Counted from the first letter of the whole stretch, positions 6,036-17,984 are shown. The stretch: DNA of 63,366 bases, filler included, from Reclinomonas americana ATCC 50394 (GCA_048213135.1; 23 parts of 23 records of this genome joined end to end with filler, not necessarily neighbours in it); one strand, 5' to 3'. Notes: a model not told the origin generated them from the letters alone. Numbers and translations are program-made.

Positions 6036-6227
6036 TTCGTGCGATCCACAATGTGGATCAGCAGAAAATCACGGTCAATGCGATTCACATGGTGATCCGC
6101 ATTTTTTGACGGATCTCACCAACGCAACGAAGGTTGATCGCTCCGCAAGGCTCCACTATTCCGAGTTCAGACCGTGCGATCATACCTGTGGAGTCGCGCG
6201 ACATGCTGATGATTGAGCCGAGTGATC

Positions 6228-9200
6228 ATGGCTTCGCCCAACGTCTATGACTGGACACGACTCTGGTACCCGCTCGACGCGCGCCTGCCGGTCGAGCACG
6301 GCTATCTTGAACCCCAGCCCGGCGATCTCGGCGCTACGATCGCCGACCTCAGCGACACCCCCTGCCTCGTCTTGCTGGGCGCGCCAGGGATGGGAAAGAG
6401 CCACGAAGCCAAGCGCGCGTGGACCGATCTACAAGCCCGTGGCGAAGCCGCCGATCTCGTCGAAGCGCCGCTACGGCGCGATATCGGCCAGACCCTGCTA
6501 GCGCTCCTGGGCAGCGAGCATGGCCAGGACTGGGCCCAGTCCGGGCGGTCTTGGACGGTTCTCGTTGATGGGCTCGATGAACTCGAAAAAGGCGCCTCCG
6601 CTTTCAACGAAAGCCTGAAACTCTTCCTGACGGAGCTGATGCGGGTTCGCGCGGACCTGCAGGGTTTCCGGCTTCGCCTCTATTGCCGAACGGTCGAGTG
6701 GGCCGGCACGCTCGATCAGACCTTGGCCCCCGCCTGGCCTGCGCTAGACATCCAGAAGCGCCAACTTGCCCCCCTTTCCAGGGCGGACGTTCTCAAGGCC
6801 GCGGACACCGAGCTTGGTTCGTCGGACGACGCGGCGAACTTTGTCGCCGACGTCGAATCCAAAAACGTCCAAGCGCTCGCGGCCAAACCCGTTTCGCTGC
6901 GAATGCTGGTCAAGCTCTTTGCTCGACACAGCGCGCTGCCTGCGCGCCAGGCGGATCTCTTCCGCCAAGGGATCGGCGCCCTCCTGGAAGATCAGTTGAA
7001 TTCCGGTCGCCGCCGGCGCTCGGCCGCCGATGTCGACACCCTCACCATGATGGCGGGACGCATCGCCACGGCCATGGCGCTGTCTGGCGCCGGCGCCGTG
7101 ACCCTGTCCGATCAAGGCGGCGTCGAGGTGGACAGGGGGGTGATCGCCCTCGGAAAGCTCGCCAATGGGTTTGAGCCGCTCCCTCCCTTCAGCGTGCCGG
7201 TGCGCCCGCAGGATCTGCTTGAGGTCATTCGGTCCTCGCTCTTCGACCCGATCGGGGGCGATACATACGTTTGGGCCCACCAGACCTTCATGGAGTATCT
7301 GGCCGGTCGCTACTTGATCGCCCACGAACTCGAGCCAGCGCGGCTTCTCGACTTTCTGACGGTCGCCGATCCGGACGGTGGCCCGGGCGGTGTCGCGCCG
7401 CAGCTGCGTGAAGTGGCGGCGTGGACCGCGGCGCTGTCCAGGCCGGTCTTCGAGGCTCTGCTTAATCTCGAGCCTGACATCCTCTTGCAGAGTGATGTGG
7501 CCACCGCGGAACCGCAGACGCGCGCCGATCTCGTCGCCTCCCTCCTAGATCGCCTGGACACGGGCGCCCTGGACGACACGTTCTGGCAGCTCCGCTCACT
7601 GCTGGGCCGCCTGAGCCACCCAAGGCTCGCGGCGCAACTGCACGCGGCGATTACCTCGTCAGAGCGCAGCCTCCGCACTCGACTTGGCGCCATCGACATC
7701 GCCGAAGAAGCCAAGGTGACCGAGCTGGCCGCCACCTTGGTCGAACTGGCGCTCGACGACACCGGTCCGTTGTCCCTGCGGCGCGAGGCGGCCAATGCCG
7801 TGGCGTTGCTTGGCGGCCCGGACGAAAAGAAGAGGCTCTCCGGCCTATTGAAGGCTCCGGGGACGCTCGACGACGAGATCCGAGGATCGGTGCTCCACGC
7901 CCTGTGGCCAAGCGCCCTTACTGTGCCAGAACTTCTTGGTGCCCTGACCCCGCCTCAGGTCTCGAATTTTATCGGGATCTACTCGACGTTCCTCTACAGC
8001 TTCAAGATCGAGGCCGTTTCCAAGCAAGACGCGCTAGCGATCCTGGCCTGGGTCGAACCGTTCCTTCAACGCGACGACCAAGATGGCGACAACTATTCGC
8101 TACGCCGCGCCATCGCCCGGCTGTTCTGGGCGGCTGTTTCGCAGAGCCACGAGCCGGAAGTCCGCGCGGAGCTTGCTCGGCTCCTGAACGTCGCCTTCGA
8201 GAAGCTTACGCAATCGGCGTTCGAAGATGACGACGTTAAAGCCATTTGGCCCGGCTCCGTCGAAGACCGCATCGCCGTTGTCGTCGCCACGATCGAGGCC
8301 GCCAAGGACCCAGTCCGCGCGAGCCGGTATATGCAGCACTTCACCCCCGCGCTCGTCGGGGAGGGCGACCTGCCGCTGCTCCTGGCCGCGTTGCAGGTCA
8401 ATTCCGCGCCGTCGGTGCGAGAGGCCCTGGCCGAACTGGTCCTGTCGCTTTCACGCAGCTTGCCCCTGGACGAGCTGGGCGATCTCTACGATCTCGCCCA
8501 GCAGGACCCTTTGCTCGGCGACGCCTGGGAGGCGTTCTATTCCGTCGCCTTGGACTCGCCGTCCGTCGAATGGATGCGACAAAACGCTAAGCGACATGCG
8601 GCGGCAGAACAGCGTCGCGTCGACCAGCTTCTCGTCCGGGATCGGGCGAACACGGCGATACTCTCCTATCTGGATCAGATCGAGAATGGCGCGCCAGACC
8701 TTTGGTGGCGCCTCAATCTGCAGCTCTTTGTCGACGAGAACGGGTCCTACCAGAACGATCTGGAGTTCCAGTCCGACCTGACCGAGACGCCTGGCTGGAA
8801 GCGGCTTGATGACGCCACACACCGCCGGCTGGTCGCTGCCGCCGAAGCCTCTCTGGTCGACAGCCCCCGCCAGCCCGTCGATTGGCTGGCGACCAACACC
8901 CACAATCGGCCCGCGGCTGCCGGCTATCGTGCCCTGCGCCTTCTGCACGACCTTCGTCCAGATCGCTACGATGCGCTCGATGCGCGGGTCTGGCGCAACT
9001 GGGCGCCGGCGACGATCGGCTTCTTCGACAACGATGCGGGCGCCGCGGATCAGGTTCAGAGCCAGATTGTCGCGCGCGCCTATCAGCGCTCGCCTCGGTC
9101 GATCATCCGCGCGCTTATAATTCTGTCGCGGAAAGCCGGTTCGGAAGGCCTAACGGGCCGCCCTCTCGAGCTCCTCAAGCAGGCCTACGACGAGCGTCTG

Positions 9201-11201
9201 GGTGCGGTGCTCAGTAGCCTACGCGGCGCGCGCCGCGTTGATCCGAAGATCGATGCGACGTTGGTGTCGTTCCTGGTTCGCCAGGGATACGCGCCCCTGG
9301 AAGCTGAGTTGAAGATGGGCCTGAGCGCCCGGCTATCGAGCGTTGGCGAGCGGGCGACGCAACCCGCCAAGGGCTTCAGCAACGCCATCGCCGCCTTGAT
9401 GTCTGCATCGCACGCCGACGTTTGGGCCAAGGTAGTCGAGCTAACGGATCTCGAGCCTGATCTGGCGAGTGAAATCTGGGAACACTTGGCGTCAATCTAT
9501 TCGTTCCGAAAGGCGCCTCAGATCGAGTCGCTCGACGAGGAGCTTGTCGCCAGGGCTTATGTCGCTCTTTTCCAGCTTTTTCCGGATCGACCGGAGGAGA
9601 CCTCGGGCGCGCGTTTCCTCTCCGCGGTCGATTTTGTTGATCAGCTGCGCGGCTCGCTCCTCAACAATCTCGTGGCGCGTGGCACGCCGGCGGCTGTCGA
9701 CGCCGTTTCGCGGATCGCCAGCTCGGCGGCGGACGATGGTTGGGCGCGGCGCAACATTCCTGAGGCGCGGCGCAACTACCGGGCCAAAGTGAAGCATGGG
9801 GAGCCCGCTGAACTCCTTCAGCGCATCTTCCTGATGAGCCCGTCTTACCCGCCGCGCCCGGTCGAGACCCTGCCCCCTGAACCGCCGGTCGAGCTTTCGA
9901 CGGACCTGCCCACGGAGCCGAGCGCACCTATCTCGCCTGGGGATCTCCCTGGTCCGACGGGCGCGCCAACGCTCGGCAGCCGAGTCCTTCGAATTGTCTC
10001 AGTGGCGACCGAATGGGGATCGGGCAGCGGTGGCGTCTCGACGCTGAACCGTGAGCTCTGTATCGCGCTGGCCGGCCAGGGCCACTCTGTCGTCTGCGTC
10101 GTGATCGATGCATCCCAGGCCGAAATCCTCCAGGCCAATGCGGCCGGCGTCGAAATCGTCCGCGCGCCCACCATGACCGAAATCCACGACCGAGATAGGC
10201 TCCTGCTCTTGAAGCCGGAGAACTTCCCGGAAAAATCGCCGGACATCGTCTTCGGGCACGATCAGGTCACCGGCCCAGCGGCGCATCGCCTGTCGCTCGA
10301 GTTGGGCGCCGCCTACGTGCACTTCCTGCACACGGTCCCCGAGGAGATCGAGCTTCAGAAGAGCCGGACCAAGTCGCTTTTCCGCGGCAATGCCAAGAAG
10401 GAAGCCCAGCGCGCGCTCTGCGAATGCGCCCGCCTTGTGGTCGGGATCGGACCCCGGATCTCCGAGAACGCGCCTTATGTGGCGGGCGTGCCCCTTCACG
10501 AGATGATTCCTGGCCTGAACGTGGATCTTTTGGGCCGCCCCGTGGTCCCCAGGCCCCGCAAGACGTTCTGGATCGGTGGGCGAATGGAGGACGCCGATCT
10601 CAAGGGCCTGGCAATCGCCTCGTCCGCCGTTTGGAAGCTTGGCGAAAGCGGGAAGTATCCCATCCGACCAACGCTGACCGTAAGAGGGCTCGACCCCGAT
10701 AGCGACTACGAGGACATGGCCAAGACAGGCCTTCACGATGGCCAGTGGCAGGCCTGTATTCAGCCGCGGCCGTTCACCTCGGAGACGAAGAAGATCTACG
10801 AGGACATCGAGGAGGCCGCCGTCGTGCTCATGCCCTCCCTCACCGAAGGCTTCGGGCTTACGGGGTTCGAAGCCATAGCTGCCGGCCATCCCGTGCTGAT
10901 CTCGATGGAAAGCGGACTGGCCCAATGGCTCCACGGACTTGAAGTGAAGGGGCGTATCAGCGCGGGATTCAGCGATGCCTGCATTGCGCAAGTGGTGCTT
11001 TCGGACACCGCACGGACTGACATCTGGCACGACAAGCTCGCCAAGCTTTTCGGTGCGCCAGAGGTCGCGTTCGAACGGGCCGACAAGTTGCGTGAGACGC
11101 TGAAGATCGAATTTACCTGGGAGCGGGCCGCTAAAGGCTTCTCCGACAAGCTCCTTGAGCTCGTTGCCGAGGGTGATGTGGACGGTTCGATCGACGAATG
11201 A
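6228..11201 (+). CDS. NACHT/STAND P-loop NTPase with HEAT-like helical region and C-terminal GT4 (GT-B) glycosyltransferase domain
   Basis: Walker A GAPGMGKS (6378-6401), Walker B VLVDGLDE (6558-6581), winged-helix HQTFMEYLAG, long helical repeats, Pro-rich linker, then from ~9981 ATEWGSGSGGVSTLNREL..HFLHT..GRMED..LKG..MPSLTEGFGLTGFEAIAAGHPVL (GT4 EX7E motif). Confidence 0.85.
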   Translation: MASPNVYDWTRLWYPLDARLPVEHGYLEPQPGDLGATIADLSDTPCLVLLGAPGMGKSHEAKRAWTDLQARGEAADLVEAPLRRDIGQTLLALLGSEHGQDWAQSGRSWTVLVDGLDELEKGASAFNESLKLFLTELMRVRADLQGFRLRLYCRTVEWAGTLDQTLAPAWPALDIQKRQLAPLSRADVLKAADTELGSSDDAANFVADVESKNVQALAAKPVSLRMLVKLFARHSALPARQADLFRQGIGALLEDQLNSGRRRRSAADVDTLTMMAGRIATAMALSGAGAVTLSDQGGVEVDRGVIALGKLANGFEPLPPFSVPVRPQDLLEVIRSSLFDPIGGDTYVWAHQTFMEYLAGRYLIAHELEPARLLDFLTVADPDGGPGGVAPQLREVAAWTAALSRPVFEALLNLEPDILLQSDVATAEPQTRADLVASLLDRLDTGALDDTFWQLRSLLGRLSHPRLAAQLHAAITSSERSLRTRLGAIDIAEEAKVTELAATLVELALDDTGPLSLRREAANAVALLGGPDEKKRLSGLLKAPGTLDDEIRGSVLHALWPSALTVPELLGALTPPQVSNFIGIYSTFLYSFKIEAVSKQDALAILAWVEPFLQRDDQDGDNYSLRRAIARLFWAAVSQSHEPEVRAELARLLNVAFEKLTQSAFEDDDVKAIWPGSVEDRIAVVVATIEAAKDPVRASRYMQHFTPALVGEGDLPLLLAALQVNSAPSVREALAELVLSLSRSLPLDELGDLYDLAQQDPLLGDAWEAFYSVALDSPSVEWMRQNAKRHAAAEQRRVDQLLVRDRANTAILSYLDQIENGAPDLWWRLNLQLFVDENGSYQNDLEFQSDLTETPGWKRLDDATHRRLVAAAEASLVDSPRQPVDWLATNTHNRPAAAGYRALRLLHDLRPDRYDALDARVWRNWAPATIGFFDNDAGAADQVQSQIVARAYQRSPRSIIRALIILSRKAGSEGLTGRPLELLKQAYDERLGAVLSSLRGARRVDPKIDATLVSFLVRQGYAPLEAELKMGLSARLSSVGERATQPAKGFSNAIAALMSASHADVWAKVVELTDLEPDLASEIWEHLASIYSFRKAPQIESLDEELVARAYVALFQLFPDRPEETSGARFLSAVDFVDQLRGSLLNNLVARGTPAAVDAVSRIASSAADDGWARRNIPEARRNYRAKVKHGEPAELLQRIFLMSPSYPPRPVETLPPEPPVELSTDLPTEPSAPISPGDLPGPTGAPTLGSRVLRIVSVATEWGSGSGGVSTLNRELCIALAGQGHSVVCVVIDASQAEILQANAAGVEIVRAPTMTEIHDRDRLLLLKPENFPEKSPDIVFGHDQVTGPAAHRLSLELGAAYVHFLHTVPEEIELQKSRTKSLFRGNAKKEAQRALCECARLVVGIGPRISENAPYVAGVPLHEMIPGLNVDLLGRPVVPRPRKTFWIGGRMEDADLKGLAIASSAVWKLGESGKYPIRPTLTVRGLDPDSDYEDMAKTGLHDGQWQACIQPRPFTSETKKIYEDIEEAAVVLMPSLTEGFGLTGFEAIAAGHPVLISMESGLAQWLHGLEVKGRISAGFSDACIAQVVLSDTARTDIWHDKLAKLFGAPEVAFERADKLRETLKIEFTWERAAKGFSDKLLELVAEGDVDGSIDE

Positions 11202-11291
11202 ATGACTAGCGGGACATGCCCCATCACAAAACATATGTCCTGCAGAGCATAATATATTCTTTTAAGTATACGTGCAGACGTTAGGCTGTTG

Positions 11292-11320
11292 ATCGTCCGC
11301 GCAGGGCGGTTAGCGTCATG
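11292..11320 (+). repeat. Putative recombination site A (degenerate)
   Basis: ATC GTCCGC GCA GGGCGG TTA GCG-TC ATG, with a 1-nt deletion in the right arm. Confidence 0.6.
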
Positions 11321-11339
11321 CTGAATAGCGAGGATCGTT

Positions 11340-11666
11340 GTGCGCAGACGATACTATCGGTGCGATTGGAAAAGTCTCGACGAGTCAAATCCGACTGCGA
11401 TCTTCTACGAGGTGGATCAGCACAATCTGGTTACTCGAACCATTAACGTCTTCGCAGACGACGAGGCTGTGGGGCAATTGACTAGCGATTTCCCAACCGG
11501 GACACGGATGGGCCGGAGCCTGGTGGACGGAACGTTCTCGCGAGCTATCGGAGGTATGACGCTCGGCGAGATCAATTGGACCAGTGATGGCGAGATCACC
11601 CTGCACGAAATCGATGAGCGCGAGTTTGAAACGGCCTGGAAGCTGACCCTTTTACCGTCTGACTAG
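11340..11666 (+). CDS. Small hypothetical protein, DUF6881-like (cassette gene)
   Basis: YYRCDW..NPTAIFYEVD..RTINVFAD..EIDEREFETAW pattern; AGGA RBS upstream. Confidence 0.65.
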   Translation: MRRRYYRCDWKSLDESNPTAIFYEVDQHNLVTRTINVFADDEAVGQLTSDFPTGTRMGRSLVDGTFSRAIGGMTLGEINWTSDGEITLHEIDEREFETAWKLTLLPSD

Positions 11667-11683
11667 GGCGGAAGAGAGGCGTA
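11654..11683 (+). repeat. Putative recombination site A2 overlapping the stop codon of the preceding gene
   Basis: ACC GTCTGA CTA GGGCGG AAG AGAGGC GTA; the TAG stop at 11664-11666 lies inside the site; right arm degenerate. Confidence 0.5.
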
Positions 11684-11890
11684 GGCGCGGGTAGCGTGGG
11701 CGGATGAAGCAGCGGACTTGTATCGCCTTGAGCATCGGCTTAGTCGCGTTGACCGCCTTCCTTATATGGCGCGCTCCCGCGATTTATCGGCTCTATCAGG
11801 ATCGGCATCTGATCGCTGCTTGCGCCCGCGACAACAGCAATTGCCCTTGAGTATCATGGCTTCGTCGGCACCCAGAAAGCTGACTTGCTG

Positions 11891-11920
11891 GATGTCAGTG
11901 AAGGGTGGTTTGCGGGCTTG
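11891..11920 (+). repeat. Putative recombination site B
   Basis: GAT GTCAGT GAA GGGTGG TTT GCGGGC TTG. Confidence 0.65.
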
Positions 11921-12121
11921 GCTTGGCTAGCTTGGATCAGTCGAGCGATGGAGGTGGCTATTAGTCCAGAAAAGCCCTTCCCCAATAGCGAGGAGCGAAA
12001 TCCCTAGGGCGACTCGCTCCCAGCTGAAGGATACGGCGTGCCGTCCCCAGAACATCGGAAGCCGTCGTCGGCTCGGCGCCATGACGGCGACATTGGCAGG
12101 GCAACTCTCAGCACCGGCGCC

Positions 12122-12151
12122 AATGACCGCTCACGACCCTAATCGGACTCT
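12122..12151 (-). repeat. Putative recombination site C
   Basis: Reverse strand AGA GTCCGA TTA GGGTCG TGA GCGGTC ATT, 3 bp after the stop of 12155..12604. Confidence 0.72.
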
Positions 12152-12154
12152 TGA

Positions 12155-12604
12155 TCAGTCCGCTCCGAATTGCGGGCGCGTGTAAGTCACCTTTGGCAAC
12201 TCGTTCGAAATGATCTCCAGGCACTGGTTCTGACCGCCCAGCAGGAAGTGCCGCAGCGGACCGGTAACGAGCCCTGACACCCCTCGACTGAGTTCGTCGA
12301 GATAGATGCTCTTCGATATCTCGTAACCGAAGGCAGGGGGAATGCCCTCCTCGTCTCGGCGAGCCCAATAAGCAATCAGTTCTCGCTCATCGTGAACCCG
12401 GTAGCTGATCGGATCGTCAACGACGACCCAAGCGGAACCGATCTCGCCGTCATACTCCGCGATCAATTTCCATCCGGTCTTCAGGCCGTAAGCGAACTGG
12501 AAAAGGTCCCCCTGGTCCTTGGGGCCTCCACGCCAACCGATTTGCTGATCAATCGAGGCGAAGCCAAGTGGGGGGAGTATAAGATCGACTTGTTCTACAC
12601 TCAC
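12155..12604 (-). CDS. Hypothetical protein (cassette gene)
   Basis: 149-aa ORF, GTG start with GAGGA RBS, lying between sites C and D. Confidence 0.7.
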   Translation of the reverse strand: MSVEQVDLILPPLGFASIDQQIGWRGGPKDQGDLFQFAYGLKTGWKLIAEYDGEIGSAWVVVDDPISYRVHDERELIAYWARRDEEGIPPAFGYEISKSIYLDELSRGVSGLVTGPLRHFLLGGQNQCLEIISNELPKVTYTRPQFGAD

Positions 12605-12652
12605 TGCGTCCTCACTTTCGGGCGAGATTTTCGCAGTCTACCGGGACCAGTC

Positions 12653-12682
12653 AACGTCGCCTAACCACCCATGGCGGACAGT
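12653..12682 (-). repeat. Putative recombination site D
   Basis: Reverse strand ACT GTCCGC CAT GGGTGG TTA GGCGAC GTT. Confidence 0.75.
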
Positions 12683-12732
12683 CGGAAAGTCTGCTCTACG
12701 ATCTCACGCGTAGGTAACGCCACTGCCAATCC

Positions 12733-13452
12733 ATGCTCGCCCATCCACCACTTCGTGCAGCTCTTGACGCGCTTTATGCCGCGCTCGCCGGTTACCCTAT
12801 GCCCACCAGATGGGAAGCAGCGCCGGGCCGACCGACCGACCTTCTCCGGCGCCTGGCCGGCGCGCCGTTGCGAGAGCTGACGTGCGAAGTTCTTGGTCCA
12901 TACTCTGGCTGGGCGATGACCACCGTAGGGGAGCCGCGACACTACAAGCACTTCCTCCCCCGGATCGCTGAGCTAGCTGTCCAGGGCGATTGCGCGCACC
13001 AAGGGACAATCCCGCCGGTTCTAGCCGGCAAGATCATCTACGCAGGTTTCGACCGTTGGCCCGCCTCAGAGCAGCGGGCGGTCCGGGCGCTCTTTCGTGT
13101 CGCCTTCGAGCAAGCCGTCACCGAACGCCCGGGGTTTGCCGACGCGGAGCAATGGCTCTGCGCCGACCTGCGCCTTGGAGCCGACATATCTGAGGCGCTC
13201 CAGATCTGGGCCGCCGCTCCGCAGCCCAATGCAACCCTGCAGTTGGCCCAGAGCGTACAAGCGGCCAACCTCCGGAGCCTGGAAAACGAAGTGCCGCCCT
13301 TTTGGGAAGAGCTTCCAGCGCTGCACCGTCCCATCTTCGACGCTTGGCTACGGCGTCCAGCCACTCGCGCCAACTTAGAAGCTGCGATATGCGGCGCGGG
13401 CGATGATGAGTGGCTCATCCAAGGCGCGCTCAAAGCCGCGCCGCTTCAGTAG
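12733..13452 (+). CDS. Hypothetical protein (cassette gene)
   Basis: 239 aa with PLRELT..GPYSGWAMTTVG..YKHFLPRI motif; lies between sites D and E. Confidence 0.72.
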   Translation: MLAHPPLRAALDALYAALAGYPMPTRWEAAPGRPTDLLRRLAGAPLRELTCEVLGPYSGWAMTTVGEPRHYKHFLPRIAELAVQGDCAHQGTIPPVLAGKIIYAGFDRWPASEQRAVRALFRVAFEQAVTERPGFADAEQWLCADLRLGADISEALQIWAAAPQPNATLQLAQSVQAANLRSLENEVPPFWEELPALHRPIFDAWLRRPATRANLEAAICGAGDDEWLIQGALKAAPLQ

Positions 13453-13453
13453 C

Positions 13454-13483
13454 TACGTCCGCCATCCACCCTAGTCGGCCATG
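13454..13483 (-). repeat. Putative recombination site E, recombinase-proximal
   Basis: Reverse strand CAT GGCCGA CTA GGGTGG ATG GCGGAC GTA, 1 bp after the TAG of 12733..13452. Confidence 0.75.
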
Positions 13484-13584
13484 ACCGAGGGCAGCTCCCG
13501 CGGCGGCGCTGCGTAAGCGCAGCCGCAGAGGCCTGAACGTGGTAGGATGAGCCGAGGGGAATAGCCAATTCGCAGGAGGCGGAC

Positions 13585-14211
13585 ATGGCTCAATTTGACC
13601 TTTTCCTTCCACCCAAACGCGCTTGGAACACTGGCCGCATCATCGGTCCTAAGCCGCCGTTCAAGCCCAGACACATCTGGGGAATCCGACAGCAGCTCAA
13701 AGCGAACGGGCGAGTCCGCGACCTCGCCATGTTCAATTGCGCTATAGACGCCAAGCTCAGAGGCTGCGACTTGGTGAAGCTGCGTGTCAGCGACGTAGCG
13801 CCGGGTGGCGCACTGCGCGCACGCGCGACGATCATTCAGCAGAAGACAGGGCAGCCCGTACCGTTCGAGATCACGGAACCCACAAGAGACGCTTTGGCAG
13901 TTTGGCTGAAGGTGCGTGGGCGACGTAGCGACGACTGGCTATTTCCCAGCCGCAGTCGACCAGGCGATCACGTCAGCACGCGGCAGTATGCTCGCCTGGT
14001 CGACAAGTGGGTGTCGATGATTGAACTCGAGCCTCGGGCTTACGGCACGCATAGCCTGCGCCGAACGAAGGTGGCGCTGATCTACAAGAAGACGGGCAAC
14101 TTGCGCGCATGCCAATTGCTACTCGGACACCGGAAACTAGAGAGCACGGTCCGATACCTTGGCATTGAGGTCGATGACGCGCTGGAGATGTCTGAGCAGA
14201 TCGACCTCTAG
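13585..14211 (+). CDS. Tyrosine recombinase/integrase, catalytic domain only (208 aa)
   Basis: Catalytic R (KLRGCDL), K (QQKTG), HxxR (HSLRR), H (LLGH), Y (TVRYLG); AGGAGG RBS; no room for an N-terminal core-binding domain. Confidence 0.93.
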   Translation: MAQFDLFLPPKRAWNTGRIIGPKPPFKPRHIWGIRQQLKANGRVRDLAMFNCAIDAKLRGCDLVKLRVSDVAPGGALRARATIIQQKTGQPVPFEITEPTRDALAVWLKVRGRRSDDWLFPSRSRPGDHVSTRQYARLVDKWVSMIELEPRAYGTHSLRRTKVALIYKKTGNLRACQLLLGHRKLESTVRYLGIEVDDALEMSEQIDL

Positions 14212-14561
14212 CTCATCGGCCCAACTGCATTGGGGCGGTCCCGGTGCAAGACGCGCCTCCACTGAACGTCGAGTTCCTGGAGTAGCGCCAAGGTCAGCGT
14301 TTGGCGCNNNNNNNNNNNNNNNNNNNNNNNNNNNNNNNNNNNNNNNNNNNNTTAATTAATTAANNNNNNNNNNNNNNNNNNNNNNNNNNNNNNNNNNNNN
14401 NNNNNNNGCGATCGGCGAGGACGGAGAGTGCGGTCGCCATCGGACCGGCGAGGCCCAAATCGGAAGCGACTTCACCTCGAAGGGTCGCCATCCACCGAAG
14501 AAGGACGAGCCGCTGTCGGGGGGCATGTGCGATCGCCCAGTCTCGGCGGTGCGACTTTCCG

Positions 14562-16373
14562 ATGAGAGAGCATCGCGTCACCGGACGCCTCACCGCGACG
14601 ACGATCGCGCCGACGGTCAGGGAGGCCGACGAGGCCGCACTGCGGCGCGAGCAGATCGATGAGGTCTTCCGAATGGTGATCCCGGGTGTGGCCGGTGCCG
14701 GCCTCGCCGCGCTGATCCTCGCGGTGTTCCTGGTCGCGCTCGGCGCATCCGATCCCCGCACCGCCTCCATCTGGGCCGCCTGTGTCCTGACATGCGCCGT
14801 CGCGCATACGCTCCTCGCCCTTGGCTACCGGCGCGCCGATTGCGTTGTCAGGGCCGCATCGACATGGCCACTCGCCTTCACCGTCGTTGCGGGGCTGGAA
14901 GGAATCGCCTGGGGCTTCGCCCCCGTGGGCCTGACGCCTGACGCTCCCTTCGACATACGCTTCCTTCCTCTCGCCGTCACGCTCGGGGTGACGGCCGGCG
15001 CGATTCCCGCCTTCGGCCCGTGGCTGCCTGCCTTCCTCGCATTGTTCCTGCCCGCGACCTTGCCCTATGTGGCCGCGAATTTTTTTCGCCCGGCGCTCGT
15101 CGAGCGGGCGAGCGCGTTCCTGATGCTGATCTATGTCGTGGTCATGGGCGGCCTCGGCGTCCGCAGCCACCGCGCCTTCATCGAGATCGTCGGCTTGCGG
15201 CTGCGGAGCGAGGCGCTGGCGGAGGACCTGCGGCGGGAACGGGATACAGCCGATGCAGCAAATCGTGCCAAATCGAGCTTTCTGGCTGCGGCAAGCCATG
15301 ACCTGCGCCAACCGGTGCATGCGCTCGGTCTGTTCGCGGGAGCGCTGCTTCGCCTGGACCTGCCCGGCGAGGCTCGTCTCCTCGTCGAGCGGATCGAGGC
15401 GTCCGCCGCTGCCATGGACGGCCTGTTCAACGCCATCCTCGACATCTCGCGGCTCGATGCCGGCGTGGTCGAGGTCGCGCCGCGAGCCTTCCGGGTCGGC
15501 CCCTACCTCGCCCGCATCTGCCGCGACCTCCGTCCCGAGGCGGAGGCCAAAGGGCTGCGGCTGCGCTGCCGCTCCTGCGACGAGGTGGCCTGGACGGACC
15601 CGTTTCTGCTCGAACGCGTGGTGCGCAACCTCGTCTCCAACGCGGTCCGCTATTCGGACCGGGGCGGCGTGCTCGTCGCGTGCCGTCGACGCGGCGGCCG
15701 CCTCGCGATCCAGGTCTTCGACACGGGTCCCGGCATCGCCGCGGGCGACCACGAGCGCATTTTCCAGGAATACGTTCAGATCGGAAATGTCGAGCGCGAC
15801 CGCACCAAGGGCTTGGGCCTCGGATTGGCGATCGTGCGGCGGACCTGCGCGATCCTCGATATGCCCATCGCGCTGCGCTCCCGCATCGGCCGAGGCTCAT
15901 GCTTCGAGGTTAAGATGGCACTCTCCGACGAGGCTGCCCTGGCGGAGGATTCCGTCGCGGCGGCGCCGGGGGCGCTCGCGGAGAGAAGCCTGATCGTCGT
16001 GATCGACGACGAGGCGTCCATCCGCGAGGCGATGGAGCGCCTGCTCGCGGGCTGGGGCCACGACGTCATCGCAGCGGGTTCCGGTGACGAAGCGGTCGCG
16101 CGGCTCGCATCGCACCCGACGCGGCCGGATCTGATCGTCTCCGATTATCGCCTGCGGGACGGCGAGACGGGAACCGAGGTGATCGAGCGCCTTCGCTCGG
16201 AATTCAACGAGACGATCCCGGCGTTGATCATCACCGGCGACACCGCGCCCGACAGGCTGATCGAGGCCCGGACGAGTGGCCTCGTACTCCTCCACAAACC
16301 TGTGCCGAACGGGAAACTGCGCGCCGCGATGCGCAATCTCATGGTGGGCGCGCGCGCATCCTCGGGCGAATGA
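14562..16373 (+). CDS. Membrane hybrid sensor histidine kinase (HisKA, HATPase, receiver)
   Basis: TM helices, ASHDLRQP H-box, NAVRY, DTGPGI, GLGLGL, C-terminal IDDE..SDY..KP receiver. Confidence 0.93.
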   Translation: MREHRVTGRLTATTIAPTVREADEAALRREQIDEVFRMVIPGVAGAGLAALILAVFLVALGASDPRTASIWAACVLTCAVAHTLLALGYRRADCVVRAASTWPLAFTVVAGLEGIAWGFAPVGLTPDAPFDIRFLPLAVTLGVTAGAIPAFGPWLPAFLALFLPATLPYVAANFFRPALVERASAFLMLIYVVVMGGLGVRSHRAFIEIVGLRLRSEALAEDLRRERDTADAANRAKSSFLAAASHDLRQPVHALGLFAGALLRLDLPGEARLLVERIEASAAAMDGLFNAILDISRLDAGVVEVAPRAFRVGPYLARICRDLRPEAEAKGLRLRCRSCDEVAWTDPFLLERVVRNLVSNAVRYSDRGGVLVACRRRGGRLAIQVFDTGPGIAAGDHERIFQEYVQIGNVERDRTKGLGLGLAIVRRTCAILDMPIALRSRIGRGSCFEVKMALSDEAALAEDSVAAAPGALAERSLIVVIDDEASIREAMERLLAGWGHDVIAAGSGDEAVARLASHPTRPDLIVSDYRLRDGETGTEVIERLRSEFNETIPALIITGDTAPDRLIEARTSGLVLLHKPVPNGKLRAAMRNLMVGARASSGE

Positions 16374-16380
16374 GACCGCC

Positions 16381-17026
16381 TCAGATAAGGCCCGCCGCAC
16401 GCGCCGCCGCAGCCGCCTGGGTGCGGTTGATGGCGCCCAGCACCTTGAAGATGGCGGTGACGTGCGCCTTCACGGTCTTCTCCGAGAGATCGAGTTCGTA
16501 GGCGATGATCTTGTTCGGCTGCCCGGAGCTCAGGCGGCGCAACACCTCGACCTGACGCGCGGTGAGCGCAGAGGCGGTGACGTCCGCCGGGCTCGGCGGC
16601 ACCTTCTGAGGGAGCGCCGTTCCCGTCACCTCGGCGAGGATGAGGGGCGGCACATAGACCTCGCCATCCATCACGAGGCTGATCGCTGCGAGCAGCGTGT
16701 TGTGGCTCGCCGATTTCGGGACATAGCCGAGGGCACCACTGGCTAGGGCGCGGCGAGCGTCTTCCGCCTTCTCCGAAGAGGACAGGACGATCACCGGCAC
16801 TTCCGGTCGCACGCGGCCGAACTCGCCGATCGCGCTGAGCCCGTCCATGCCGGGCAGGACCATGTCGAGAATGACCACGTCGAGATCGTCGTTCGCTTCG
16901 GCCAGACGCAGGGCCTCAGGCACCGTTCCGGCTTCGAGCATCGCCACCTCGGGTCCGGCCCGCCGGAGCAGGGCCGCGATGCCCTCGCGCAAAACGGGAT
17001 CGGTCATCGACGATCAGAAACTTCAT
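16381..17026 (-). CDS. NarL/LuxR family response regulator, with +1 frameshift at ~17001
   Basis: MKFLIVDD from ATG 17026 joins (H)PVLREG if one base is removed; LTARQVEVL..NKIIA..LSEKTVKAH HTH. Confidence 0.9.
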
Positions 17027-17174
17027 CGCCGGAGTATTGCCNNNNNNNNNNNNNNNNNNNNNNNNNNNNNNNNNNNNNNNNNNNNTTAATTAATTAANNN
17101 NNNNNNNNNNNNNNNNNNNNNNNNNNNNNNNNNNNNNNNNNACGGACACTTCAGCGACCGCAGGGGAAGGCACC

Positions 17175-17984
17175 GTGTTGGCTCTCGCGCAGGGCGGGCC
17201 GCATCCATGGCCGACGGTGCCGGCGGCCTGGCGCGTCCGGCTGACCGCGCTGGGGATCGCGGCCGTCGCCATCCTCGTGACCACCCTGATGACCGTCCCG
17301 GATTCCCCCACGGCCGCTCTTCTTCTCGACCGGCAGCGCTACAGCGTCTTTCCCTATCCCTTCACCATCCAAAACCTCATCTACCTCGCTCTCGCCTGGG
17401 CGATGGGTGAACTCTACCGACGCTGGCGCGCCGCACGACGCGAGCGCGCCTTCCTTCAGGCCGGCTTGTTGCCGGAAGACCCCAATTCTCTCCTCGAACT
17501 GCACGAACTCGGGCCGATCCGCCGCCGCGTTGCCGAACTGCACGATGCCGAAAGCGGCTTTCTTCCGGCCCTGATCGACCTGACGATCCTTCAGCTCCAG
17601 GCGAGCCGCTCGGTCGATCAGGCGATCAACGTGCTCACCAGCTCGCTGAACCTAATGAGCGACCAGGTCGACCTGCGCTACCAGATGCTGCGCTACATGG
17701 CGTGGCTCATCCCGACGATCGGCTTCCTCGGCACCGTCATCGGCCTGTCGCTCGCGCTGCACCTCATCGACCCTGCCAATATGGATCTCGGCAAGGTGGT
17801 CGGCGGCCTCTCGGTGTCGTTCTACACCACGCTCGTCGCGCTGATCGCCAGCGCGATGATGGCCTTCGTGCAGCATGCCGTTCAGGAACAGGAGGAGCTC
17901 GCGCTCAATGCCGCCGGGCAATACTGTCTCAAGAACCTGATCAACCGCGTCTATGTGGACCACGAGAGCGTGGTCGCGCGATGA
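17175..17984 (+). CDS. MotA/TolQ/ExbB proton channel family protein
   Basis: WLIPTIGFLGTVIGL and GLSVSFYTTLVAL TM motifs; start uncertain. Confidence 0.85.
   Translation: MLALAQGGPHPWPTVPAAWRVRLTALGIAAVAILVTTLMTVPDSPTAALLLDRQRYSVFPYPFTIQNLIYLALAWAMGELYRRWRAARRERAFLQAGLLPEDPNSLLELHELGPIRRRVAELHDAESGFLPALIDLTILQLQASRSVDQAINVLTSSLNLMSDQVDLRYQMLRYMAWLIPTIGFLGTVIGLSLALHLIDPANMDLGKVVGGLSVSFYTTLVALIASAMMAFVQHAVQEQEELALNAAGQYCLKNLINRVYVDHESVVAR

Follow-up and report, generated by a model that had tools for sequence, protein, structure and literature searches.

Gene capture by site-specific recombination is best known from integrons. Their integrase, IntI, has approximately 320 residues with an IntI-specific insertion in the catalytic domain, and the attC sites on which it relies are imperfect palindromes recombined as folded single strands. 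The pdif modules of Acinetobacter plasmids, on the other hand, have sites that resemble the host dif site and use the host recombinases XerC and XerD. A third arrangement, rAID-1 of Bacteroidales, is described in passages of a preprint as a recombinase with a recurring intergenic motif behind it, an organisation that its authors call integron-like (Ross et al., bioRxiv 10.1101/471110). According to the same passages, the enzyme is XerD-like and has close homologues only in Bacteroidales; the criteria for rAID-1 are an XerD-like recombinase at the 5' end, with over 44% identity to a B. fragilis reference, followed by at least two co-directional low-GC genes; and many recognisable immunity genes are found in the cargo. 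The subject of the present analysis is a locus in an assembly of Reclinomonas americana ATCC 50394 (GCA_048213135.1), of which the window (the whole stretch of DNA analysed, 63,366 nt) consists of 23 contigs of 1–8 kb joined by 100-nt N linkers. One of these contigs (6036–14307) probably carries an array of mobile single-gene cassettes bounded by 24-nt duplex arm–core–arm sites, beside a tyrosine recombinase that appears to comprise the catalytic domain only and to be mobile itself.

As in integrons and in clusters of attC sites lacking integron-integrases (CALINs), a tyrosine recombinase stands here beside an array of mostly single-gene and mostly unannotated cassettes, and a site adjoins the recombinase gene. 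Another feature shared with integrons is that the borders of cassettes coincide with a fixed point in each site, and arrays without the enzyme are common, as with CALINs. Contrary to integrons, however, the enzyme consists of 208 residues of catalytic domain only and falls under the cut-off of the XerA/integron-integrase model of NCBIfam (49 bits against 220), the sites are of a 24-nt, duplex, non-folding type rather than attC hairpins, the cassette genes lie in either orientation (at least one of them with its own promoter), and the recombinase gene, too, forms a mobile module between sites. With pdif modules the locus shares the presence of discrete gene modules between short arm–core–arm sites with a 6-nt centre, found in varied contexts, whereas the candidate dif site of the related Brevundimonas genomes has another core and a different second arm, and a dedicated small recombinase travels with the sites.

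A possible resemblance to rAID-1 is that one Brevundimonas cassette encodes a DUF4279 protein, an immunity family (PMC9424270), and that its array abuts a YD-repeat gene. Nevertheless, the enzyme here has a catalytic domain only, cassette genes are found in both orientations and 13 of 18 have no family, which would set the locus apart from rAID-1 as the preprint's passages describe it. Among the 18 cassette open reading frames (ORFs) of related loci, one encodes this DUF4279 protein, and the cargo of the window itself is a DUF6881 protein and two proteins without a family. The inverted arms around a 6-nt asymmetric core recall Cre/loxP, and the predicted fold matches the catalytic domains of Cre, XerA, XerH and lambda Int; unlike Cre and the Xer proteins, the recombinase seems to have no N-terminal core-binding domain. 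It lies outside the invertase family model and, contrary to FimB and FimE, would act on many cargo-bounding sites rather than on a single switch. REP elements, which are dispersed extragenic palindromes forming stable hairpins, differ in that the sites described here are clustered and fold no better than shuffled sequences.

No description of this enzyme family together with such sites was found in the full-text literature searched, the coverage of which leaves subscription journals largely outside, and the matching passages of Smyshlyaev et al. 2021 (PMC8138268) contain nothing on catalytic-domain-only enzymes. The sequence-only reading of the window had proposed a single-gene capture and excision platform distinct from integrons and from Xer/pdif modules. 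This proposal is supported by the recurrence of cassettes with core-level borders, by an enzyme that reaches no family cut-off, and by sites that do not fold and are unlike the candidate dif site.

Architecture of the recombination sites

Six sites are found in the array, three of them on the + strand (A, A2 and B) and three on the − strand (C, D and E), all at the positions and on the strands given by the sequence-only reading. Aligned on their cores they read GTCYG-N3-W / GGGYSG / approximately 9 nt ending in GCGGAC. Instances at the loci of recombinase homologues give the consensus GTCCGC-WAT-GGGTSG-GRA-GCGGAC, and the site model is GTCCGC-N3 / GGGTSG / N3-GCGGAC, a conserved unit of 24 nt arranged as 9-6-9, which replaces the 12-6-12 architecture originally put forward.

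Sites A (11295–11318, +; GTCCGCGCA / GGGCGG / TTAGCGTCA) and A2 (11657–11680, +; GTCTGACTA / GGGCGG / AAGAGAGGC) are exact matches to the strict 15-nt pattern; A has a good left arm and core and a weak right arm, and the right arm of A2 is degenerate. Site B (11894–11917, +; GTCAGTGAA / GGGTGG / TTTGCGGGC) has one mismatch to this pattern and is inverted with respect to C (12125–12148, −; GTCCGATTA / GGGTCG / TGAGCGGTC; core 12134–12139), D (12656–12679, −; GTCCGCCAT / GGGTGG / TTAGGCGAC; core 12665–12670) and E (13457–13480, −; GGCCGACTA / GGGTGG / ATGGCGGAC; core 13466–13471). A further site, F (14293–14307, +; GTCAGCGTT / TGGCGC), is a pattern match of a second core class and is cut by the end of the contig. 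The cores of the window thus fall into the classes GGGCGG (A, A2), GGGTGG (B, D, E), GGGTCG (C) and TGGCGC (F), and because the cores GGGCGG and GGGTGG are shared, A/A2 and D/E constitute like-core direct pairs.

Direct pairs bracket the genes, as had been noted from the sequence: A/A2 flank the 108-aa gene, C/D the 149-aa gene and D/E the 239-aa gene. The accompanying claim, that the downstream site lies at the stop codon or within 1–3 bp of it, holds for A2, which overlaps the TAG at 11664–11666 of the DUF6881 gene, but not for C and E, which are 6 and 4 nt away, respectively.

A chance origin of the window sites is excluded. The strict pattern (GTCYGNNNWGGGYSG) has four matches on both strands of the window (A, A2, C and D), all of them in the array, where 0.22 would be expected, and four or more matches were obtained in none of 100 shuffles. 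When one mismatch is allowed, the nine matches do not differ significantly from the 6.6 expected window-wide; six of the nine, which now include B and E, fall within the 2.2-kb array (11295–13480). Scores on a position weight matrix (PWM) of the full 24 nt, built mostly from Brevundimonas sites with ten seeds that include site C, are 5.8 bits for A, −0.2 for A2, 10.7 for B, 28.4 for C, 19.3 for D and 12.3 for E. Folding of four window sites as single strands is no better than that of shuffled sequences (z −0.1 to −0.8).

Cassette borders at the site cores

The strongest evidence of the analysis comes from the points at which homology to other contexts begins and ends. The 239-aa cassette gene (12733–13452, +), which lies opposite to its flanking sites, belongs to a rare family of which 33 homologues were found, and has no match in Pfam, NCBIfam, PADLOC or the protein atlas. 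Its copy in another genome (G236; 93% protein and 92.7% nucleotide identity over 12667–13471 of the window) is delimited by position 12667, in the core of D, and by position 13471, with which the core of E ends, and the flanks differ on both sides. In G236, the recombinase is placed on the other side of this cassette as compared with the window.

The 149-aa cassette gene (12155–12604, −), also without a family in Pfam, NCBIfam, PADLOC or the protein atlas, has a copy with 87% nucleotide identity in a metagenome contig (L082), where homology begins at 12670, inside the core of D; beyond this core, the arm and the neighbouring gene differ from those of the window. This contig is an array itself, in which the sites overlap the stop codons of the ORFs. 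A sigma-70-like promoter (TTGACT-16-GAAAAT, 12654–12627) was located by a promoter scan just within the 149-aa cassette, and the matching stretch of the metagenome contig reads TTGACC...GAAGAT. A search of 401 Caulobacteraceae genomes gave two distant homologues of the 149-aa protein, each of them flanked on either side by co-oriented sites.

The 108-aa gene (11340–11666, +) encodes a DUF6881 protein (Pfam PF21812, 2.5e-08, above the cut-off) with a 78%-identical copy in a further genome (G182). Nucleotide homology covers 11269–11674 of the window and ends three bases past the core of A2.

Contigs of other runs support the same joints. In those of runs X1 and X2, agreement with the window stops at 12139, at the boundary of the C core, and unlike sequence follows. 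In those of X1 (study P1) and X3 (study P2), agreement begins only at 12665, at the boundary of the D core, after a stretch of different sequence; the flank of X3 at D forms a complete alternative site. Together with a join at 13519 (described below), these alternative joins at the C and D cores point to recent or ongoing variation. Furthermore, modules are shuffled among three betaproteobacterial loci (L061, L065 and L070); of the eight junctions inspected there, every one coincides with a CGGCCA or GGGTCG core. In these comparisons, the limits of homology mark the site cores as recombination joints that bound mobile units.

The recombinase and its module

The recombinase (13585–14211, +; 208 aa) matches the Pfam family Phage_integrase (PF00589) over residues 41–192 (1.1e-16). 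Alignment to PDB 4a8e and to a 24-sequence family places the catalytic residues at R59, K87, H156, R159, H182 and Y191, so that the intact R-K-H-R-H-Y set reported from the sequence alone is confirmed; five of these residues are invariant in the 24 sequences and R59 is at least 90% conserved. Across classes, this family alignment has a mean column identity of 74%. The AlphaFold model (predicted local distance difference test, pLDDT, 78) is ordered from residue 28, and its best Foldseek match is XerA (5hxy; E 1e-08, template modelling score 0.66), followed by XerH, Cre and lambda Int catalytic domains; on this model, the protein is predicted to be devoid of a core-binding domain. It lies under every NCBIfam cut-off, including those of XerC/D, of the XerA/integron-integrase model and of the tyrosine-type DNA invertase model NF007370 (24.8 bits against a cut-off of 221).

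Relatives of this protein are abundant. A protein search gave at least 8000 significant candidates, the best 120 of which are nearly all 208 aa long and mostly 80–98% identical, and species-representative genomes yielded 465 stretches that encode a relative. Identity is approximately 76–95% in Caulobacter, Brevundimonas and Phenylobacterium, and approximately 60% in Beta- and Gammaproteobacteria. The recombinase also occurs in 2424 plasmid records, 664 of which cover at least 80% of the protein, while no close relatives were found in the collection of named phages.

The gene behaves as a module of its own. Its left edge lies in 13519–13584 (+), where a complete + strand site ends in other contexts: in contigs of X1 and X2, ...GTCCGACTAGGGTCGTGA directly precedes window position 13519 (GCAGCC...), and the two together make up a full site just upstream of the recombinase. 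When the window is compared with Caulobacter genomes, only the segment from 13527 or 13540 to 14212 is common (to 14307 in one case). Between loci of different Brevundimonas species only approximately 770 bp are common, from site to site, and in other classes it is again only the recombinase module (approximately 0.7–0.8 kb) that the loci have in common. Sites of the class of F (TGGCGC) are found at the same offset 3' of the recombinase in locus L001, and approximately 78 nt 5' of it in seven other alphaproteobacterial loci. The loci of Beta- and Gammaproteobacteria have inverted sites on the two sides of the recombinase gene. The array contig ends inside site F, 96 nt past the stop codon of the recombinase. 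In the last bin (14040–14307), word depth rises to roughly tenfold that elsewhere, and 14212 is the starting point of several loose ends; this high depth fits the presence of the module in many contexts.

A separate observation concerns the 3' end of the gene. In contigs of X1, X2 and X4, the stretch 14167–14307 (the last ~45 nt of the recombinase gene and the sequence downstream) is preceded by unrelated sequence.

Sites beside recombinase homologues

In 78 loci fetched around recombinase homologues (1.22 Mb), the strict pattern has 34 matches, 31 of which are on the strand of the recombinase. The PWM gives 15 matches of at least 15 bits in the 12 alphaproteobacterial loci that contributed no seeds, against 0.4 in shuffles, with 13 of the 15 in the orientation of the recombinase gene; in the 60 loci of other classes, it gives 25 matches against 1.2. 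The site is thus a recurrent feature of the neighbourhoods of the homologues. Five Brevundimonas loci have a site 38 nt past the recombinase stop codon, followed by co-oriented sites every ~0.4 to 3 kb.

Among 19 cassettes of up to 1 kb, the stop codon of the longest ORF is within 30 nt of a site in 13. These ORFs run with the sites in five cases, against them in 13, and in one case lie between inverted sites. In Pfam searches, 13 of 18 cassette ORFs had no family, and the rest comprised DUF4279, SIMPL, DUF805 and two matches under the cut-off.

In one of these loci (L008), the array whose first cassette encodes the DUF4279 protein is directly followed by a YD-repeat (Rhs-like) gene of approximately 1500 aa (12690–17554).

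Many cassette joints consist of tandem double sites 25 nt apart (L007, L008, L010, L011, L083 and L084; e.g., L008:11123–11171), in which a GGGTCG-core site is followed by GTCGCC-TAA-GGGTGG-GAA-GCGGAC; one triple site occurs, in L083. The site just 3' of the recombinase is of the second of these types only. The idea that the double sites might act as hairpins in the manner of attC was ruled out by inspection of the sequence and by folding, since two double sites gave z values of −2.0 and −0.7 against shuffles.

A 1.38-kb stretch common to L007 and L014, considered at one point as a shared cassette, was rejected as such. It is an IS110-family element (341-aa transposase; L007:8561–9939 and L014:6637–8012, 91% identical) placed inside a site of the CCAATGTCCGCTTC/TGGCGC class. 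This placement resembles that of IS1111-type elements, which target the attC sites of integrons.

Distribution of sites and enzyme in related genomes

Sites were counted in five, and then in 61, related genomes (Brevundimonas). In one of the five (G004; 2.8 Mb), all six matches with up to two mismatches are located within 4.4 kb beside the sole recombinase gene. Another (G005) contains a site cluster by the recombinase, a 16-kb run of 19 site matches in 15 groups, 18 of them co-oriented, and two small arrays without a recombinase. Equal frequency of the motif throughout the genome had been named in the sequence-only reading as grounds for abandoning it; in these related genomes the sites are clustered instead.

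Of the 12 Brevundimonas genomes with the recombinase, nine have it full-length and three in partial or split form. The mean number of sites per genome is 16.2 in the nine full-length carriers and 7.7 in genomes without the recombinase.

A candidate dif site (CGCCTAAGATATATTATGCGAA or a close variant) occupies one locus per genome in four of the five genomes: it is present as a single copy in G004 (C12:188063–188084), G005 and G063, as two overlapping matches at one locus of G021, and is absent from G003.

Copies of the recombinase gene that are split, truncated or interrupted by stop codons are found at G018:C16:398651–399272, G039:C2:375708–376109, G047:C60:20900–21160 and G028:C1:1704523–1705146. 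The existence of such broken copies in several Brevundimonas genomes suggests that the enzyme decays often while the sites remain.

Proposed mechanism and significance

The core-level borders and the conservation of the sites beside homologues come directly from the sequence comparisons. From the anatomy of the locus, we infer that this enzyme may act on the sites, by the chemistry outlined below, and may still do so today. Subunits of the recombinase would bind the two inverted 9-nt arms of a site, two sites with the same 6-nt core would pair, and strands would be exchanged at the core edges in the fashion of Cre and Xer. Between direct sites, a cassette would be excised as a circle or inserted; between inverted sites, the segment would be flipped, an arrangement offered in the window by A/A2/B and C/D/E on opposite strands. 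The identity of the core (GGGCGG, GGGTGG, GGGTCG or TGGCGC) would decide which sites can pair, and cassettes would bring their own promoter and could lie in either orientation.

A wider proposal, to which we give an even chance, is that of a Proteobacteria-wide system in which a self-mobile, catalytic-domain-only recombinase of approximately 200 aa captures, excises, inverts and exchanges promoter-bearing single-gene cassettes at duplex sites of a lox-like kind, the cores serve as exclusive docking classes, and arrays, which last in most genomes without the enzyme, are serviced in trans upon the arrival of a recombinase module. The core classes would then be a natural form of recombinase-mediated cassette exchange.

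The system looks like a second solution to the problem of gene capture, in which a minimal recombinase and plain 24-nt duplex-type sites move single genes, the recombinase gene included, and homologues of the enzyme are present in Alpha-, Beta- and Gammaproteobacteria and on plasmids. If the link between enzyme and sites holds, many hypervariable islets of small size, and the breaks in assemblies that surround them, would have an explanation; the system would also provide a marker for accessory, immunity-like and defence-adjacent genes, and possibly yield a very small site-specific recombinase tool with several natural core variants. The fact that sites far outnumber the enzyme raises the question of how arrays without a recombinase are maintained: they may persist in the way that CALINs do, or be the substrate of another enzyme.

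Evidence against the proposal and alternative explanations

Several observations weigh against an array of mobile cassettes worked by the 208-aa enzyme. In the window, homology to the G182 copy of the DUF6881 gene runs through site A to 11269, so that in this one comparison A is unsupported as a border, and this putative cassette is only half supported. On the 24-nt PWM, neither A nor A2 has a convincing right arm. Nine distant homologues of the 239-aa protein (up to 46% identity) have no site match of 10 bits or more within approximately 1.5 kb. No excision or inversion joint was found in the contigs (as opposed to raw reads) of four runs, in all of which the region of the 149-aa cassette (12140–12664) has almost no contig cover, a gap that proves nothing. 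At three mismatches, the 24-nt pattern is no commoner in G004 than a reversed control. Sites with up to two mismatches occur in 58 of the 61 Brevundimonas genomes and the recombinase (E ≤ 1e-40) in 12, and because of this disparity the link between enzyme and sites can only be inferred; in five site-rich genomes that lack it, the only relatives are of Xer size (E ~1e-12 to 1e-14), and sites therefore persist, often perfectly, without this enzyme. The left arm (GTCGCCTAA) of the site 3' of the Brevundimonas recombinase matches an arm of the candidate dif site in eight of nine bases, which leaves room for a role of Xer. Finally, in 19 Brevundimonas genomes (L086, which is G021:C5, and L088–L105), a conserved convergent gene pair is separated by a gap of anything between 9 bp and 4.3 kb, and a site array is found there in one of the 19 (G021, with two mini cassettes), with one weak match in G058. 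This gap is a general insertion hotspot, and since only G021 has an array in it, the locus shows no site-driven turnover.

The disparity between sites and enzyme, the Xer-sized recombinases of the site-rich genomes and the dif-like arm are what would be expected if the sites were real but recombined by the host XerC/XerD or by an unrecognised enzyme, the 208-aa gene being one more module that landed in them. This explanation is rather unlikely: the candidate dif site is unlike the cassette sites in its core and other arm, the recombinase module is always site-bounded across the classes of Proteobacteria and is the sole conserved gene travelling with the sites, every good site in G004 adjoins the only copy of the recombinase, and full-length carriers have about twice as many sites. 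The array could also be a fossil, built by past recombination, in which the window sites and the enzyme are now inactive together and form an ordinary stable accessory island. The poor scores of A, A2 and B on the full 24-nt model, the mere remnant of a site just upstream of the recombinase in the window and the lack of joints in the contigs of the four runs would agree with such a state, which is nonetheless improbable in view of an intact and strongly conserved recombinase, of the alternative joins at the C and D cores and at 13519 seen in contigs of the same and of another study, and of an array contig that itself ends inside a site.

That the main role is DNA inversion between A/A2/B and C/D/E, as in a shufflon or a phase switch, rather than capture, is very improbable. 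Sites on both strands of the window, the 239-aa cassette with its sites inverted relative to the recombinase between the window and G236, and the recombinase genes between inverted sites in Beta- and Gammaproteobacteria would suit this role, and invertases of the FimB/FimE type are of similarly small size. Yet the score on the invertase model is far from its cut-off, the sites lie between complete genes rather than within a gene or beside a promoterless one, most arrays are uniformly oriented, and it is whole cassettes that differ between contexts. The last explanation, and the least probable of all, takes the repeats as REP-like or regulatory palindromes (terminators or protein-binding sites), with borders left by homologous or illegitimate recombination. 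It would account for sites just past stop codons and for their number in many genomes without the enzyme, but it is at odds with sequences that fold no better than shuffles, with an asymmetric core, with sites that share a direction within an array regardless of gene direction and are clustered rather than dispersed, and with homology limits at the 6-nt core in two window cassettes and in the eight betaproteobacterial junctions. The reading of the locus as mobile single-gene cassettes beside a small, mobile recombinase is retained as the probable one.

Other features of the window and of the array contig

The G+C content of the individual contigs of the window ranges from 0.48 to 0.71; the bin is fragmented and may be mixed. 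Along the array contig, the genes are ordered as the 1662-aa NACHT/'GT4-conflict' gene, the 108-aa DUF6881 gene, a 48-aa ORF, the 149-aa and 239-aa genes and the 208-aa recombinase. The 48-aa ORF (11704–11850, +), between A2 and B, comes from the ORF list alone, has no Pfam family and is a doubtful gene.

The 1662-aa gene bordering the array (6213–11201, +) encodes a protein with a NACHT-type region at the N terminus and a 'GT4-conflict' glycosyltransferase at the C terminus (Pfam PF20706, 2e-99). It has no PADLOC match, and its scores on the NCBIfam models of the NACHT antiphage proteins EruA and HyoA (178 and 131 bits) are well under the cut-offs; by its domain composition, the gene looks defence-like.

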